Origin: an uncultured archaeon
GTDB lineage: Archaea > Asgardarchaeota > Lokiarchaeia > Sigyniarchaeales > SOKP01
NCBI GenBank assembly: GCA_964508365.1
Contig: CAZDTP010000003.1
Coordinates: 34,589-98,588 of the forward strand
Direction: 5' to 3'
DNA: 64,000 bases
Below the pieces are notes generated by a model that did not search any database, had not been told where the DNA came from, and was given only the letters and a program-made list of their open reading frames with translations. The position numbers were made by a program, and so were the translations under genes. Below, in pieces: positions 25,886 to 32,339 of this stretch. Within the stretch, counting starts at the first letter, position 1. Each line of letters starts with the position of its first letter.

Positions 25886-27004
25886 TTACTTCTTTAGGAA
25901 ATGTCTATAAATTGTCACATAGTTTTTTACACTTACTACTCTAGGATTACGCCTAAAATTAGAAGGAATAAGAGCACTACAGCGTGAACAGAGTTTTGAA
26001 GTCTGCATCCAATCTTTAAATTCATCAGCGTGGGAAGGATACCTGCAGTTTGGACATACAACTACTCCTCGTCCTCTATCTTCCGGAAGTTTTGGTAATT
26101 TAAAACAAAAGATACACTTGAAATCCTCTAATGTTAAATATGATCCTTTTGGTTTAAATTTGTCAAAATTTTGGATTTTTGAAGTTGATTTAGTTCTAGT
26201 TATATGAGTTGCATTTGATGTTTTTTTTCTAGTGGTTTGCTTTTTTGACGTAGGAGTTATTCTTGATGATTGAGTTCTAGATCTTGTTGTACGAGTAGTT
26301 GCTCTAGTAGAGGGTGTTGGATTAGTTACCCTTGTTGTCCTTACATTCTGTCTCTGTATTGTAGGTGTGGTTAAACTATTAATAGTTCTAGTACGATTTG
26401 CGATGTAATCACGAGTTAATGTAGGTAGTGATGAGCGTGTATTAGTAAATCCAAAAAGTATTACTATTAAAATCGTAGCAATTAATAGCAGCAAGAGATT
26501 TAAGTCTAATGGAAAACTTTCAATAGAACCATAGAAAGTTATCCAATAAGTTAGAATGAAAATAAGAACTGAGATTGATAACATGTACCCTAGCGTTCTC
26601 GCTTTTACTGCCTTTGTTCCAAAGTATATTACATTGTATTTCTTAAAACAACGATATAAAGAGTAAGAACCATACAATATGTAAGGAAAAGCAAAAATTA
26701 GGCTCCATAAACTAAAATATACCCCTCCGAGAAGATTTTCACCCAATACACCTGTATAAAAACCCCATATAGAATAAAAAATTCCCACACATAACGGAAG
26801 AATTACAAAAAATGCAGTATTTTGTGGTGAATTAAACTCACGATGACGTTTTATGTTTTCAAATATTTTTAAAGTGAATATTAACCATAACCCAATTAAT
26901 AACCAAGTAACAAAATTAGAAAAAGAATAGGAGAGTAAACCATGGATTGCACCAATTATTAGAAAAATAGTACATATTATTGTTATAGTTTTATTTCTTG
27001 CCAT
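25886..27004 (-). CDS. Multi-pass membrane protein with a C-terminal RING-like Zn finger (putative E3 ligase)
   Basis: About 6 hydrophobic helices (aa ~6-186), a Thr/Arg/Ser-rich linker, then C-x2-C-x16-C-x2-C-x4-H-x2-E-x3-W-x6-C-x2-C; last gene of the Ub-E1-E2-JAB run. Confidence 0.75.
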   Translation of the reverse strand: MARNKTITIICTIFLIIGAIHGLLSYSFSNFVTWLLIGLWLIFTLKIFENIKRHREFNSPQNTAFFVILPLCVGIFYSIWGFYTGVLGENLLGGVYFSLWSLIFAFPYILYGSYSLYRCFKKYNVIYFGTKAVKARTLGYMLSISVLIFILTYWITFYGSIESFPLDLNLLLLLIATILIVILFGFTNTRSSLPTLTRDYIANRTRTINSLTTPTIQRQNVRTTRVTNPTPSTRATTRTTRSRTQSSRITPTSKKQTTRKKTSNATHITRTKSTSKIQNFDKFKPKGSYLTLEDFKCIFCFKLPKLPEDRGRGVVVCPNCRYPSHADEFKDWMQTSKLCSRCSALIPSNFRRNPRVVSVKNYVTIYRHFLKK

Positions 27005-27036: not shown

Positions 27037-27843
27037 TTATTCATCATATTCTAAATATGCTGGTTTCCCTTCAATAATTGGATTCATGAATTCTAAAATT
27101 TCTGGTAACATTCTCACATCTAAATGGCCCTTAATATCAAAAGGTACCGAGTACCATTTTTTAGTTTTAAAATTTGCACGATAGATCTCAAAACCTACAG
27201 ATTTTCCGTTAATTTGATAAGGATCAATTACTAAAGCTACTGATTTATCCCAAAATTGCTGATATCGCCTTTGAGTCCCTAAGTCTTCTCTAGACATGAA
27301 ACATCCATATGAGGGATGAGAATGATACCATCCACAAATAAATTGCTTACTTTTTACAATATCTTCATATGCTCGAGTAAAATTGTTATAATCTTTAATT
27401 TCAGCATAGACTGCAGTGCCGTGACCCATTGGATATGCATCTTCTAAATATAATATTCCATTGTCATAGCTTCCAGCGAGTAACCCAATCACCTCAACCC
27501 AGTTCTCTTTCCTAATTTTGGAATTCGCATATTTCAACGAATGACTTGAGATCTTTAGGATAGCTTTTACAGTTATTTTTATCTTTGCAGAAATTTTATC
27601 ACTTTTATCACCTTTAGCGATAGTTATTACAGGTTCCATTGGAATTGGTTCTAATTTGGTTTTTATACTTTCTGAATGGTTTAAAGATTTCGCATCAAAA
27701 ATTTCAGCGGTTATTTCTTCCTGTAATTCTTCGAGTTGTAATTCGGTGTATACTTCCTCAAGTATTTCTTTTTTGATCTTTTCCTTTATTTTTTGTTTAA
27801 TTGCATCTCTAATTTTTTCACCATTCTCATCGTTAATTTTCAT
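27037..27843 (-). CDS. JAB1/MPN+ (JAMM) metalloisopeptidase, Rpn11/CSN5-like
   Basis: EVIGLLAG...GWYHSHP...MSREDLGTQ...LVIDP. Confidence 0.93.
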   Translation of the reverse strand: MKINDENGEKIRDAIKQKIKEKIKKEILEEVYTELQLEELQEEITAEIFDAKSLNHSESIKTKLEPIPMEPVITIAKGDKSDKISAKIKITVKAILKISSHSLKYANSKIRKENWVEVIGLLAGSYDNGILYLEDAYPMGHGTAVYAEIKDYNNFTRAYEDIVKSKQFICGWYHSHPSYGCFMSREDLGTQRRYQQFWDKSVALVIDPYQINGKSVGFEIYRANFKTKKWYSVPFDIKGHLDVRMLPEILEFMNPIIEGKPAYLEYDE

Positions 27844-27847
27844 AAAA

Positions 27848-28375
27848 TCACCATTTATCCTTCGCGTATTTCTTTACCAAATTCCTAACTTTTTTTTCAA
27901 AATTTTTCTGATCTTTCATCATCTCAATAGCTGCCTTTTTGTTAAAAACATCAGTTGGATTAACATATTTTCCACGAGTGTTTAACATAGCAATTATTGC
28001 TTGAACAACTGTAACCGCTGTTTTTGAAGGACTCCATCCCCCTTTTTTGCCAGTTAGAGAAGGATCTACTAAAGCTAAGCAGATATTTCTTTGTCCTTTA
28101 TATTCACTTGGCTTTGGCCAAAAGTTTGGATGCCATATCGGAGTATGCAATCTAACAAAAGGAGGCTGATTTGGATATTGAACAGGAAACTTCATTTCTA
28201 ATTTAAACAATCCTCCTGCATAAGCAGTGCCTTTAGGACCTTTAATCGTAACAGCTAAGTGATCGATGCTCTTTTTTTTTGGATTAAATGGCTTTAATTG
28301 GATAATTGTACCTTCCTTTAGCAACTTTTTTAGTCCCGCAAAATCTCGGGAAACTCGACTACTTCTTATACTCAT
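27848..28375 (-). CDS. Ubiquitin-conjugating enzyme E2
   Basis: GPKGTAYAGGLF, FPVQYPNQPP, WHPN, catalytic ICL, WSP. Confidence 0.95.
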   Translation of the reverse strand: MSIRSSRVSRDFAGLKKLLKEGTIIQLKPFNPKKKSIDHLAVTIKGPKGTAYAGGLFKLEMKFPVQYPNQPPFVRLHTPIWHPNFWPKPSEYKGQRNICLALVDPSLTGKKGGWSPSKTAVTVVQAIIAMLNTRGKYVNPTDVFNKKAAIEMMKDQKNFEKKVRNLVKKYAKDKW

Positions 28376-28441: not shown

Positions 28442-29677
28442 TTATTTAAATTTTAAGGTTACATAAATCTCTCCACCTTTAAACCCCGCAACTGTGAGAA
28501 ATTCGTAATTCCTCAAATCGTTTTGTACAAGAGTTTGGTCATTATCTAAAACGACAATATCATTAAAATCTAATAAAGTTAAAACCGGTTCAAATTCAGA
28601 TTCCAATTCATATCCATTTCTTTCTAGTGTTTTAATTAAATTTGTACAAGGTGAAGTACTCTTCATTTTAATGGAAACTCGTCTTACCTTTTTACCGCAC
28701 TGAGAACATTCTGGATTTCTCTTCTTTTCAATGTGGTATAGTTTCATTGTCACAGCATTAAATATCACATAACTTGTAATAGGCTGACCTAATCCTTTAT
28801 GACCCCTTTTCCAATGAAGGATTTTAACCACCTCATGAGATTGTAATGCCGAAATAGTTGCGTTAATTGTAATTATCCCAGGATCGTGGCGATCAATAAT
28901 TTTTACAATATCATCTTCGGTATATTCAGGTAAGAAATTGTGTTTTACAACAAGTTCATTTGCAACTTTTTGAATAAATCTAATATCTTCTACATTTTTA
29001 GGATTTGGATCTGTGTCAAATTTATCTTTAAAGGCCATATCTCCTTTAAAGACACAATGAATTCTTTTTCGAGGGATGCCAACCACCGTGCAAGCTGCCA
29101 TTTCATCACTTTTGAGATCTGGCAATGGATTGCATTCATAACATGCATTTCGATATGGAAATATCGTATATATGTGACCATAATAACCAGAAACCCCTCC
29201 ATCTACTAAAGGTTTTCTGAATCTAATGCATTGAGCGTTTAAATTTAGCCTTGCGTTCATTGAATCAAGACCTCCAATTACAACATCTGCATTATAATAG
29301 AGTGCAGGGTTTAATCTTTCTAAGGATGAATGATACCCTTTAACAATAATATTTGGATTAATTTCGACTAATTTTCTTGCAGCTGCAATTGCTTTGGGTT
29401 CTCCTAACTTTGCGCCCACAAACAGAATTTGACGGTTCAGGTTAGAATGTTCAATTATGTCTAAATCGACAAGATCTATATGACCTACCCCTAACATGGT
29501 TAAGTTTTTAGCAATTTCACATCCTAAACCTCCTACGCCAGCTATTAATACTCTCGACTTTTTTACTAATTTCTGGGACCATCCTTCTAAACGAAATTGA
29601 CGATCGTATAAGTCTCTCTCTTCTTCTGACATTCCCTTTGCAAAAAAATCTGAATTCTTACGCAATATTATCACCAT
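28442..29677 (-). CDS. Ubiquitin-like activating enzyme E1 (UBA3/UBA2-like)
   Basis: YDRQ, GVGGLG, DLDIIEHSNLNRQ, CYEC and CSQC zinc pairs, catalytic ACTVVGIPRKRIHC; likely start TTG a few codons in. Confidence 0.93.
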   Translation of the reverse strand: MVIILRKNSDFFAKGMSEEERDLYDRQFRLEGWSQKLVKKSRVLIAGVGGLGCEIAKNLTMLGVGHIDLVDLDIIEHSNLNRQILFVGAKLGEPKAIAAARKLVEINPNIIVKGYHSSLERLNPALYYNADVVIGGLDSMNARLNLNAQCIRFRKPLVDGGVSGYYGHIYTIFPYRNACYECNPLPDLKSDEMAACTVVGIPRKRIHCVFKGDMAFKDKFDTDPNPKNVEDIRFIQKVANELVVKHNFLPEYTEDDIVKIIDRHDPGIITINATISALQSHEVVKILHWKRGHKGLGQPITSYVIFNAVTMKLYHIEKKRNPECSQCGKKVRRVSIKMKSTSPCTNLIKTLERNGYELESEFEPVLTLLDFNDIVVLDNDQTLVQNDLRNYEFLTVAGFKGGEIYVTLKFK

Positions 29678-29750: not shown

Positions 29751-30086
29751 TTATTTAAAAGTACCCGCTGTGCTTGCAGGGATTAAAAGTATATCGTCGC
29801 CATCATTAACATTATAGTCTTTTAACTGGCTACTCTCATCCATTGTTCTTCCACCAGAAGAAAGATGGAACTCATCTGGATCAAGTCCGAATAGATTTCC
29901 TAATGTTTGTTTGATATCGCTTACGTTATTTGCGTCATTTACAGTTAACTTTTCCTTCTTTTCACCAGGACCAATAGTTGACATGAAATATAAAGTCAAC
30001 TTCTTACCTGTTGAGGGAACTTTGCTTGATGGGGTTTTAGATTTAACTGGTTCTAACTCCTCATCAAAATCTTCATTATAACCCAT
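29751..30086 (-). CDS. Ubiquitin-like protein 1 (acidic N-tail, C-terminus ...STAG-TFK)
   Basis: beta-grasp pattern KLTLYF...VSDIKQTL...FHLSSGGRTMDES..LKDYNVNDGDDILL; first gene of the E1-E2-JAB run. Confidence 0.88.
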   Translation of the reverse strand: MGYNEDFDEELEPVKSKTPSSKVPSTGKKLTLYFMSTIGPGEKKEKLTVNDANNVSDIKQTLGNLFGLDPDEFHLSSGGRTMDESSQLKDYNVNDGDDILLIPASTAGTFK

Positions 30087-30348: not shown

Positions 30349-31032
30349 TTGCTTATGAGCACTCCAGATAACCTTCAATCTATTGTTTGTAATCTAATAA
30401 AGGAATATCTAAAAAAGAAACCTTTCTTTTCAATAGAAGATATTGTAATGTTCATCAGTAATAGGGTAAGAACTAACCCTAATTTGAACAAACGCAGCAT
30501 TGAAATCATCATTAAAAATCTCATTAAAAGAAGAATTCTAATCCCTGGAACTAAATTAATGAAAAATAATATCATCGAGCATCCAATAAGAAATGAAATC
30601 TATAATTATATAAGAAAGAATCCTTCGAATGTTAATGATATAATGAAAGCAATTAATATTGGGAGTAATCAAGCGTTATGGCATTTATCTTGCTTAGAAA
30701 AATTTAGATTTACAAGATCAACAAAAATCGAGAATCAAAGAATAATTTTTGAATATGAATCAAATTCAGATCTAGATGAGTTGTATTACTATTTAAAACA
30801 GGATATTGTACAAGATATTATCAACCTACTGAAAAAAGAAAACACCTCATTTAAAATTACGGAAATTGCTGCCAATTTAAAAAAAAATTACAATACTGTA
30901 AAAAAATATCTTGAAATATTAGGAACTCTGAAAATATTAAAAATTGAAAAAAATAAAAAAAGAGTTTTATTCAGATTAGATCAAGAGAAATATGATAATA
31001 TTAGGAAATCCATTATTGATGGTGAATTATAA
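30349..31032 (+). CDS. Tandem winged-HTH transcriptional regulator
   Basis: RNEIYNYIRKNP...LWHLSCLEKF and ITEIAANLKKNYNTVKKYLEIL; divergent from the Ubl operon. Confidence 0.8.
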   Translation: MLMSTPDNLQSIVCNLIKEYLKKKPFFSIEDIVMFISNRVRTNPNLNKRSIEIIIKNLIKRRILIPGTKLMKNNIIEHPIRNEIYNYIRKNPSNVNDIMKAINIGSNQALWHLSCLEKFRFTRSTKIENQRIIFEYESNSDLDELYYYLKQDIVQDIINLLKKENTSFKITEIAANLKKNYNTVKKYLEILGTLKILKIEKNKKRVLFRLDQEKYDNIRKSIIDGEL

Positions 31033-31111: not shown

Positions 31112-31900
31112 ATGAAGAAGAAATATAGAGTTTTAAATATCATAACTCTTTATGTTGTTTTCACTTTAATTTATTTGATTTTTTTCATATTCCAAATAGA
31201 GAGTTTACCTTTATTTCTCTTTCTAACTATTGGGAGTGTTGCTGTATTATCTACCAGCACGATCTATACCGTTGTTAAATCTAAAAGCAGTCCAGCGAAG
31301 AGGATAAAAAAAGATAAATATTATCAAAAACCAAAATCAATCAAAAGAATATCGAGTGATTTGATTGAGGATTACTTCGAAGCCATGCCATTAATAGATC
31401 AATACGCTGATACTGATGTATCTTTTGAAAATGTAGAATCAATCGATGATTATATCTTCACTTTTTTCAAACAAGAGGAAGTAGATAAAATCGATTTGTT
31501 AGGGTTTTCAAAAATGGATAAAATCTTTTTTATCAGAGAGATGTTGTATTTTGATGCTGGTGAGAGAAAGCAGCTAATCGAAGATATTTTGAAAAATAAA
31601 GATATAACTGATGAACAGATAAAATACTACCCGCCTTTAAACATAATTGGATTGAATGATAAATTACGCGTTTACATAAGGTCATTAGTCGAACCTGGTG
31701 AGAAGACCAAAATACTCATAATTGAAACCTCCGAATTAATAAGTATAATCAAAGAACAAGTTGGAATTCTATTTGATTATGGTTTAGAAGATTTTTCCCT
31801 ATCCACAGGAGGTTTAATATTAGATGAAACTAAGCAGATAAAGGACTATTTTATTGACGAGGATGACGAAATTGCTTTAATTCCATCAAAAAAAAAATAG
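31112..31900 (+). CDS. Membrane-anchored protein with a C-terminal ubiquitin-like domain lacking a terminal Gly
   Basis: Two N-terminal TM helices; C-terminal RSLVEPGEKTK...LSTGGLILDE...DEDDEIALIPSKKK is paralogous to the two soluble Ubls. Confidence 0.85.
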   Translation: MKKKYRVLNIITLYVVFTLIYLIFFIFQIESLPLFLFLTIGSVAVLSTSTIYTVVKSKSSPAKRIKKDKYYQKPKSIKRISSDLIEDYFEAMPLIDQYADTDVSFENVESIDDYIFTFFKQEEVDKIDLLGFSKMDKIFFIREMLYFDAGERKQLIEDILKNKDITDEQIKYYPPLNIIGLNDKLRVYIRSLVEPGEKTKILIIETSELISIIKEQVGILFDYGLEDFSLSTGGLILDETKQIKDYFIDEDDEIALIPSKKK

Positions 31901-31919: not shown

Positions 31920-32339
31920 TTATATCCTTTCAATATAACAACCAGCAACACTCGCTGGAATTAATAAAATGTCATCTCCATCATCTACATTGTAATCACT
32001 CAGCGTAGATTCTTCATCCATGGTAACTCCTCCAGAAGACAAATAAAAATCAGATGGATCTAAAGCAAATAAATTCGCTATAGTATCTTTAATATCTCTT
32101 ACCATATTACCCGTGAAGACGGTAAGCTTTTGTTTTTTCTCCCCTGGTCCTATAGTGGATAAAAAAAAAACTGAAATCTTTTTTCCTTCAGAAGAGATTG
32201 TGGGTTCTGGAGTTTTAGATCTAATATCTTCTGTTTGGTCCTTTTTAGACTGATCATCAATATCTTTATCCAAGCTTTCATCAATTTCCTCATCGAATTC
32301 TTCATCGAACTCCTCTTCAAATTCATCGTCAAAATCCAT
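31920..32339 (-). CDS. Ubiquitin-like protein 2 (long acidic N-tail, C-terminus ...SVAG-CYIERI)
   Basis: Core closely matches Ubl1 (STIGPGEKK.KLTV, LSSGG.TMDE, DYNV.DGDDILLIPAS). Confidence 0.88.
   Translation of the reverse strand: MDFDDEFEEEFDEEFDEEIDESLDKDIDDQSKKDQTEDIRSKTPEPTISSEGKKISVFFLSTIGPGEKKQKLTVFTGNMVRDIKDTIANLFALDPSDFYLSSGGVTMDEESTLSDYNVDDGDDILLIPASVAGCYIERI

Follow-up and report, generated by a model that had tools for sequence, protein, structure and literature searches.

The window, a 64,000-nucleotide stretch of DNA from an uncultured archaeon of the Lokiarchaeia (order Sigyniarchaeales; contig CAZDTP010000003.1, positions 34,589 to 98,588), contains a ubiquitin operon whose last gene encodes a protein of 372 amino acid residues, here termed TM-RING. 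The probability that TM-RING is a polytopic membrane-anchored RING-type E3 ligase serving the cascade encoded upstream of it, which consists of a ubiquitin-like modifier (Ubl), an E1, an E2 and a JAB isopeptidase, is put at about 75%. The evidence lies in the homology and fold class of the C-terminal Cys/His domain, in the operon linkage and synteny of the gene, in the membrane topology and in the conservation of the family. The open reading frame (ORF) is uninterrupted up to its stop codon, and its start agrees with the starts of homologues (n = 327). The gene and its parts are:

25886..27004, reverse strand: the whole gene, from the ORF list, with six transmembrane (TM) helices, a lysine-poor linker and a RING-like finger; last gene of the operon.
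26447..26989, reverse strand: membrane domain, residues 6-186, six TM helices by hydropathy, positive-inside count and AlphaFold2 (AF2) helices.
26819..26860, reverse strand: predicted cytoplasmic loop 49-62, E-N-I-K-R-H-R-E-F-N-S-P-Q-N, conserved in the homologue alignment.
26594..26653, reverse strand: predicted cytoplasmic loop 118-137, very basic and conserved, beginning R-C-F-K-K-Y-N-V-I-Y-F-G-T-K, from the alignment and the model.
26135..26446, reverse strand: Thr/Arg/Ser/Pro-rich linker, residues 187-290, predicted to be disordered from its composition and a predicted local distance difference test score (pLDDT) of 28-46.
26249..26446, reverse strand: lysine-free stretch of the linker, residues 187-252, with no Lys and 12 Arg.
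25889..26170, reverse strand: RING domain with flanking helices, residues 279-372, from the AF2 model and its fold matches.
25979..26116, reverse strand: ligand core from C297 to C342, from the translation, the invariance of the ligands and the alignment to RNF24.
26111..26113, reverse strand: I298, the hydrophobic residue after ligand 1 in the first zinc loop, by conservation and predicted interface.
26021..26023, reverse strand: E328, at the position of zinc ligand 6, by conservation and predicted E2 interface.
26009..26011, reverse strand: W332, the putative E2-contact Trp of the central helix, invariant and placed by the complex model.
25982..25984, reverse strand: R341 in C-S-R-C, candidate for a relocated linchpin Arg, by conservation and complex model.

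A hidden Markov model (HMM) of 106 family domains, taken from 50%-identity cluster representatives which also underlie all domain conservation counts below, was compared with all PDB sequences. The best match is the RING-H2 finger of RNF24 (6.4e-8), followed by RNF165/Arkadia (5e-6 to 1e-5), EL5 (1.1e-5), and RNF38 and listerin (about 1e-4), so that the top of the list consists almost solely of RING-H2 E3 ligases. The alignment is in register at ligands 1, 2, 5, 6, 7 and 8 and at the Trp: H325 falls on ligand 5 of RNF24, E328 on the ligand-6 Cys, W332 on the RING-H2 Trp, and C339 and C342 on ligands 7 and 8, and the C-x2-C of the family (C317, C320) stands in place of the RING-H2 C-x-H. When members are scanned singly against Pfam at E<=0.01, zf-RING_2 is matched by 32 of 106 and Prok-RING_1 by 42 of 106 (best 1.9e-7). 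The AF2 model of residues 279-372, computed with the 106-sequence alignment (pLDDT 89.7; predicted template-modelling score 0.76), consists of two short strands, a central helix (326-335) and C-terminal helices at 348-352 and 359-371; it has the strand-strand-helix fold of RING and U-box domains, which make up all 50 of the VIA matches listed. On these profile and fold comparisons, the domain is a divergent but homologous RING-H2-type finger of the RING-H2/prokaryotic C4HC3 RING lineage, which substantiates the label "RING-like" given to it in a preliminary description made from the sequence alone.

Family-specific cut-offs are passed by few members. The gathering score of zf-RING_2 (27.3) is exceeded only by relatives with His at ligand 6, described below (28.2-31.3 bits), and the TM relative P0225 comes close at 26.2 bits. 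The Prok-RING_1 (PF14446) cut-off of 29.1 bits is passed by no member scanned, the best being P0242 at 28.5 bits, and the window protein does not match this model. A single-sequence phmmer search of the domain against PDB returned chance matches only (E>0.3), and the window protein belongs to no NCBIfam family. Two other classes were weighed for their C4H pattern. The MARCH/RING-CH model RINGv is absent among the listed Pfam matches of the members, and PHD appears only at E 0.054-0.062, outside the RING, in two of the His-type relatives; neither result is a rigorous exclusion.

The translation of 25979-26116 reproduces exactly the spacing given in the preliminary description: C297-x2-C300-x16-C317-x2-C320-x4-H325-x2-E328-x3-W332-x6-C339-x2-C342. 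C297, C300, C317, C320, H325, W332, C339 and C342 are invariant in 106/106 domains, and judged on the alignment the Cys/His motif is far beyond chance. In a diverse alignment of 47 full-length members, invariance is confined to P285, the seven Cys/His residues, E328 and W332. Of the eight ligands of a cross-brace, the seven Cys/His ligands are thus invariant and the eighth, ligand 6, is Glu; site 1 would consist of C297, C300 and H325 with E328, and site 2 of C317, C320, C339 and C342. Two peculiarities had been proposed for this ligand set, a Cys at ligand 4 and a Glu at ligand 6. The former is not one, as the other RINGs of the same genome are nearly all C-P-x-C-x4-H-x2-C, and prokaryotic RINGs have the C4HC3 arrangement according to a review (PMC11354881, citing Burroughs et al. 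2011). As the alignments have it, the real peculiarity is the Glu, which occupies ligand 6 in 97 of the 106 representatives, the remainder having His (8) or Ala (1).

The eight His-type relatives are short proteins that lack the six-TM domain; four score above the zf-RING_2 gathering threshold, and the one checked on its contig lies outside any ubiquitin operon. They end in C-P-[LIMV]-C followed by R/K (seven) or Q (one), which is the canonical RING-H2 ending, whereas the Glu-type ends in C-S-R-C followed by Asn, Asp or Ser. Glu at ligand 6 therefore co-varies with C-S-R-C in place of C-P-x-C-R/K. A linchpin Arg/Lys directly after the last ligand is absent from TM-RING, which has S343 there (N 35, D 33, S 12, G 9, R 5 and K 2 of 106 in the family), and an Arg is conserved two residues earlier, at R341 (87/106). 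This co-variation suggests that the linchpin Arg has moved from behind ligand 8 to R341, which probably takes over its role, as far as alignment can tell. We lean slightly towards zinc binding by E328, because the residue holds the position homologous to ligand 6 in the first helix turn, three residues after the His, is nearly invariant, and is exchanged for the metal ligand His in the sister group. RING variants with acidic or missing ligands, such as Rbx1 with its Asp ligand, plant RING-D, SP-RING and the U-box, provide precedents for a RING scaffold that stays an active E3 with a carboxylate ligand or after loss of a ligand or site; in those variants the changed position differs from ligand 6, or an entire site is missing. 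The literature searched contains no account of a conserved Glu at ligand 6 coupled to C-S-R-C.

P285 (26150-26152, reverse strand), which lies in F-K-P-K-G twelve residues ahead of the first Cys, is the invariant residue of the 47 diverse full-length members that stands outside the finger; its context in them is a K-P-K/R motif. This element might be a non-RING contact to the Ubl or the E2.

TM-RING is encoded last in a series of five co-directional genes in the order Ubl-E1-E2-JAB-TM-RING, with intergenic gaps of 4-66 nucleotides (32 ahead of the TM-RING gene). The four upstream genes are:

29751..30086, reverse strand: ubiquitin-like modifier, first gene of the operon (PF00240, 6.5e-8, over the cut-off).
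28442..29677, reverse strand: E1-like ThiF-family activating enzyme (PF00899, 2.7e-56).
27848..28375, reverse strand: E2 ubiquitin-conjugating enzyme, the predicted partner of the RING (PF00179, UQ_con, 7.8e-27).
27037..27843, reverse strand: JAB/MPN (Rpn11-like) isopeptidase, directly upstream of TM-RING (PF01398, 8.7e-14).

The stop codon of TM-RING is followed by T-runs and an A/T-rich promoter-like stretch, in a window of about 30% G+C, and then by the unrelated folE (GTP cyclohydrolase I). In four distant members with 20-26% full-length identity (P0186, P0225, P0191 and P0173), the TM-RING gene stands directly after the JAB gene in 4/4, and the E2, E1 and ubiquitin genes adjoin wherever the contig extends far enough. 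The gene neighbourhood typical of Prok-RING_1, with Ubl, E1, E2 and JAB, is thus present in the window and in these four relatives.

The pairing of the finger with the operon's E2 was explored by complex prediction, in which the RING domain with its 106-sequence alignment was combined with the E2, given its own alignment, and two zinc ions (three runs, three controls). Read as a measure of likeness to solved complexes, the ipSAE scores are 0.74, 0.75 and 0.71, against 0.00 for the best control; the pLDDT of the partner is 92 and the contacts agree by 100% between runs. On the E2 side the predicted interface comprises helix 1 (residues 3, 6, 7 and 10), loop 4 (68-69, including P68) and loop 7 (108-112 and 115-117, with S115-P116-S117), and on the RING side residues 298-302, E328, D331, W332, T335, S336, L338, S340, R341 and S343. 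In the model W332 touches E2 residues 69, 115 and 116, R341 touches S115 and S117, and E328 touches P116 and residue 3; I298, at a position that is Ile in 93/106, lies within the interface. All features of an E2-binding surface are therefore present, namely the residue after ligand 1, the Trp four residues past ligand 6 and the loop between ligands 7 and 8, and the proposal that the Trp sits at the E2-contact site of RING E3s is borne out by both the RING-H2 alignment and the model. The same surfaces have been defined by mutagenesis in the Caldiarchaeum cascade, where I30Q of the RING protein srfp abolishes activity, W58A impairs it, and P-Y in loop 4 of the E2 matters (PMC5654768). The RING is thus predicted to dock onto the operon's E2 by the canonical surface.

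Six hydrophobic segments by Kyte-Doolittle (about 6-24, 30-48, 64-82, 91-117, 137-155 and 168-186) agree with the AF2 helices of the membrane domain (2-25, 28-55, 63-80, 95-121, 135-160 and 168-186), so that the earlier count of about six TM helices stands, as does the earlier description of a Thr/Arg/Ser-rich linker of about 100 residues. The K/R-rich loops, i.e., the N-terminus, 49-62, 118-137 and the linker, all lie on the linker's side, and the three short loops on the opposite side contain no K/R. This one-sided distribution argues for an N-in/C-in topology in which the finger is cytoplasmic. Within the membrane domain, conservation among close homologues is highest in loops 49-62 and 118-137. 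In an alignment of 25 homologues, N50, R55, N58, S59, P60 and N62 of the first loop are invariant, and its R..N.P..S motif persists in the consensus of the 47-sequence deep alignment; in the second loop, which has six K/R and no D/E, C119, F120, K121, Y123, Y127, F128 and K131 are invariant in the 25-homologue alignment, and AF2 predicts a beta-hairpin with strands 125-128 and 131-134. By their conservation, both loops are candidates for partner or substrate contact.

The linker differs in composition from the rest of the window, whose 46 long ORFs have a K/R ratio of 2.29: its lysine-free stretch aligned over 25 homologues contains 16 Lys in total against 302 Arg. Distant members are mostly Arg-rich and Lys-poor in the linker too. 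In a subgroup (P0128, P0133, P0143, P0145-P0150 and P0153), the linker is a longer charged stretch, rich in Arg, Glu, Lys and Gln, with the look of a coiled coil or a single alpha-helix, so that the tether varies in its chemistry within the family. Lysine deserts are known to be over-represented in the disordered parts of ubiquitin-proteasome components and to limit self-ubiquitylation there (PMC10169902, PMC10665810). The linker fits this pattern and is a conserved lysine desert, which is read here as indirect support for the tether leading to an active ligase.

The family is narrow. A word-indexed search returned 327 homologues, all of them unnamed proteins of Lokiarchaeota/Promethearchaeota without Pfam domains, and of 1.84 billion cluster representatives, searched exhaustively by HMM, only 123 matched, from which its narrowness follows. 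Of 300 genomes sampled from the phylum, 123 have a match, among them 58 of the 68 genomes of the window's own family; of the ten without, three are 98-100% complete. Two well-sampled families of the phylum have 0/76 and 0/19 genomes with a match. In a single-contig 4.4-Mb genome of the same order (G210), only 42 residues of the RING region, broken by a TAA stop, survive at C1:594198-594323, and the gene seems to have been lost or to have decayed in this complete genome.

In the proposed mechanism, the JAB enzyme would mature the Ubl, and the E1 would activate it and hand it to the E2. The membrane-tethered RING would bind the charged E2 via I298/F299 of the first zinc loop, W332 of the central helix and the S340-R341 loop, with R341 acting as linchpin and promoting Ubl transfer to lysines of those proteins that the six-TM domain holds at or in the membrane. 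The Arg-rich, Lys-poor disordered linker of about 100 residues would allow the RING to sweep the cytoplasmic face of the membrane without offering lysines for self-modification. Membrane or membrane-proximal substrates, or partners such as a neighbouring membrane-tethered Ubl protein, may be selected by the membrane domain together with its two conserved basic loops.

Several genes near the operon and elsewhere in the genome touch on this scheme. Within 2.3 kb of the operon lie a membrane-anchored protein with a weak C-terminal ubiquitin-like domain (31112-31900, forward strand), which is a candidate partner of TM-RING, and a second, soluble Ubl (31920-32339, reverse strand); a winged helix-turn-helix regulator (30349-31032) separates the operon from these two Ubl genes. 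The same genome encodes at least seven further RING proteins (L005-L011; contigs C26, C21, C9, C25, C31 and C12). Two of the genome's other RING proteins (404 and 407 residues) bear two RING-like fingers each, and the one on C31 has a partial UQ_con/UEV-like ORF about 0.6 kb away. Outside the operon there are a second full-length E2 (C6:45934-46365, reverse strand) and a partial E2/UEV-like ORF (C31:15201-15452, forward strand), so that E2-E3 pairing in the organism is not one-to-one.

Some of the observations weigh against an active E3 that serves the operon's cascade. The window's protein alone matches no Pfam RING model at E<=0.01. Because RING and E2 are a textbook pair, the docking score may reflect memory of solved complexes and therefore shows likeness to these rather than binding of TM-RING to its E2; in addition, the custom alignments and the two zinc ions riding along depart from the calibration of the score, in which 58 of 80 solved complexes and 2 of 110 mismatched pairs scored as high. 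With two more UQ_con loci and at least seven other RINGs in the genome, pairing with the operon's E2 is not forced. The canonical linchpin site is Ser here and Asn, Asp or Ser in the family, which could mean weak or no allosteric activation of the E2~Ubl conjugate. Finally, Glu at ligand 6 is not strictly indispensable, given the natural Ala at this position in P0132, a representative of 418 residues and the sole member of this kind (A-H-A-D-A-F).

The last two points would also fit a pseudo-E3, i.e., a degenerate, silent RING that holds only one zinc firmly, with E328 as a surface contact to the E2 or Ubl, and that serves as a membrane dock or as a negative regulator sequestering the E2, the JAB enzyme or Ubl conjugates. 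Such a protein could tolerate a ligand 6 that is neither Cys nor His, the contacts of E328 with P116 and residue 3 of the E2 in the complex model would suit it, and so would the place of the gene, always after the JAB gene and not after the E2 gene. This interpretation is nevertheless unlikely: C297, C300 and H325 of site 1 are invariant, which argues that the site still binds metal, the sister group replaces the Glu by His, another metal ligand, the Ile and Trp hot spots of E2 contact are all conserved, a conserved Arg (R341) is retained near the last Cys, and a lysine desert makes most sense beside an active ligase. More far-fetched still is a protein with two independent zinc ribbons or treble clefs, the alternative that the preliminary description had set against a cross-brace, which would act outside ubiquitin chemistry in binding nucleic acid or protein, the basic linker contacting RNA, DNA or acidic lipids and the operon place being incidental. 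The linker is indeed strongly basic, and the sole Pfam match of the window protein is Zn_ribbon_15 (PF17032), at E 0.033 and 15.4 bits for the whole protein and E 0.0024 and 19.0 bits for the domain; this match is, however, under the threshold of 28.9 bits, and it stands against the in-register homology to RING-H2 E3 profiles, the RING/U-box identity of all the fold matches listed, the central helix with its invariant Trp, and E1/E2/JAB synteny kept down to about 20% identity. This last alternative is thus hardly credible.

The preliminary description had also drawn a parallel to Hrd1 and gp78 and left homology and convergence undecided. The domain order is indeed shared, a TM bundle followed by a disordered linker and a cytosolic RING-H2-type finger, and the RINGs of gp78 (0.0028), synoviolin (0.0048) and yeast Hrd1 (0.012) are among the matches of the family profile in PDB. 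If TM-RING were a true homologue or archaeal ancestor of these ERAD (endoplasmic-reticulum-associated degradation) ligases, its TM bundle might form a retrotranslocation-type groove. The RING is, however, not specifically closest to theirs, as they score four to five orders of magnitude below RNF24, Arkadia and EL5. The membrane domain belongs to no Pfam or NCBIfam family, has six TM helices rather than eight, and is the fast-evolving part of the family, alignable among the 47 diverse members yet far more variable than the finger. The full-length AF2 model is poor (pLDDT 57.9, from a shallow alignment of 25 sequences), so that the structure searches made with it are a weak test: Foldseek against PDB found no match of the TM part below E 0.7, and the TM match to Hrd1 ranked 18th, on a par with soluble helical repeats that are unrelated, and stayed far below the noise level of helical bundles. 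A search of the ESM Atlas by features with residues 1-200 gave no usable match, and one by shape returned only the protein's own Promethearchaeota cluster (TM 0.41). Descent from a common membrane E3 is accordingly very improbable. As nothing favours homology and the RING is no closer to those of Hrd1/gp78 than to other RING-H2 fingers, the likeness is best read as architectural only, i.e., as a convergent domain order or an independent fusion of an ancient RING.

If TM-RING is an active membrane E3, a broader proposal can be made, which at present is tentative and, though conceivable, doubtful as a whole. TM-RING and its cascade would form a prokaryotic machine for the ubiquitylation of membrane proteins, in which the TM bundle and the basic loops recognise integral membrane clients and the Ubl, which ends in Ala-Gly, marks them for extraction, degradation or sorting. 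In function it would be an Asgard forerunner of ERAD or endosomal membrane E3s, though it need not be their ancestor in sequence, and it would be built around an otherwise undescribed Cys2-His-Glu zinc site and a relocated linchpin Arg. Soluble RING E3s in ubiquitin operons are already known from Caldiarchaeum and Asgard archaea; a conserved polytopic E3 in the core operon, found in 123 of 300 genomes, adds a testable set of E1, E2, E3, deubiquitinase and Ubl with a membrane address. It bears on the in vivo targets of archaeal ubiquitin operons, and on whether the ubiquitylation of membrane proteins, on which ERAD and ESCRT sorting are based, is older than eukaryotes. The exchange of Cys for Glu that co-varies with C-S-R-C may be regarded as a natural experiment on rearranging a RING zinc site and its linchpin, for which P0132 offers a ready-made test of the need for Glu, and, to judge by the lysine-desert linker, self-ubiquitylation has been avoided for as long as the archaeal system has existed.

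In the literature searched, no six-TM E3 is described as the fixed last gene of a Lokiarchaeal core operon, and no lysine-desert tether of such an E3 was found; that on Asgard archaea, ERAD and Hrd1 makes no mention of such a protein. Reconstitution has been achieved for RING E3s from archaeal ubiquitin operons (PMC5654768), including a soluble Helarchaeal one (bioRxiv 10.1101/2023.07.25.550441). One of the closest known counterparts is srfp, the E3 of Caldiarchaeum subterraneum, which like TM-RING is an archaeal RING-H2-lineage finger whose gene shares an operon with those of Ub, E1, E2 and JAB/Rpn11, has an extra Cys near ligands 3/4, and contacts its E2 via the Ile after ligand 1, the helix Trp and E2 loops 4 (P-Y) and 7 (P-S), contacts that are predicted for TM-RING (PMC5654768). 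Unlike TM-RING, srfp is small and soluble, has Cys or His at all ligands, and carries its linchpin R69 after the last Cys (PMC5654768); TM-RING instead has six TM helices, a lysine-poor linker of 100 residues, Glu at ligand 6 and C-S-R-C for C-P-x-C-R.

Among domain families, Prok-RING_1 (PF14446) and the prokaryotic C4HC3 RINGs share with TM-RING the C-x2-C at ligands 3/4 and the association with Ubl, E1, E2 and JAB; TM-RING is set apart by Glu at ligand 6 and by a six-TM domain that belongs to no family. Bacterial members of Prok-RING_1 also bear TM helices. The best profile matches fall in zf-RING_2 (PF13639: RNF24, Arkadia/RNF165, EL5 and RNF38), with identical H-x2-[ligand 6]-x3-W-x6-C-x2-C spacing, and the RING-H2 fingers RNF24, RNF13 and ZNRF3 are membrane-anchored E3s, as TM-RING is predicted to be. 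RING-H2 fingers have C-x-H then x2-H at ligands 3/4, whereas TM-RING has C-x2-C then x4-H, and they have Cys at ligand 6, Pro after ligand 7 and Arg or Lys after ligand 8, at all three of which TM-RING differs. Hrd1, gp78 (AMFR) and synoviolin combine, as TM-RING appears to, a polytopic membrane domain and a disordered linker with a RING-H2-type finger on the cytosolic side, to which a soluble E2 is recruited, although the membrane domain has eight TM helices in Hrd1 and six in TM-RING.

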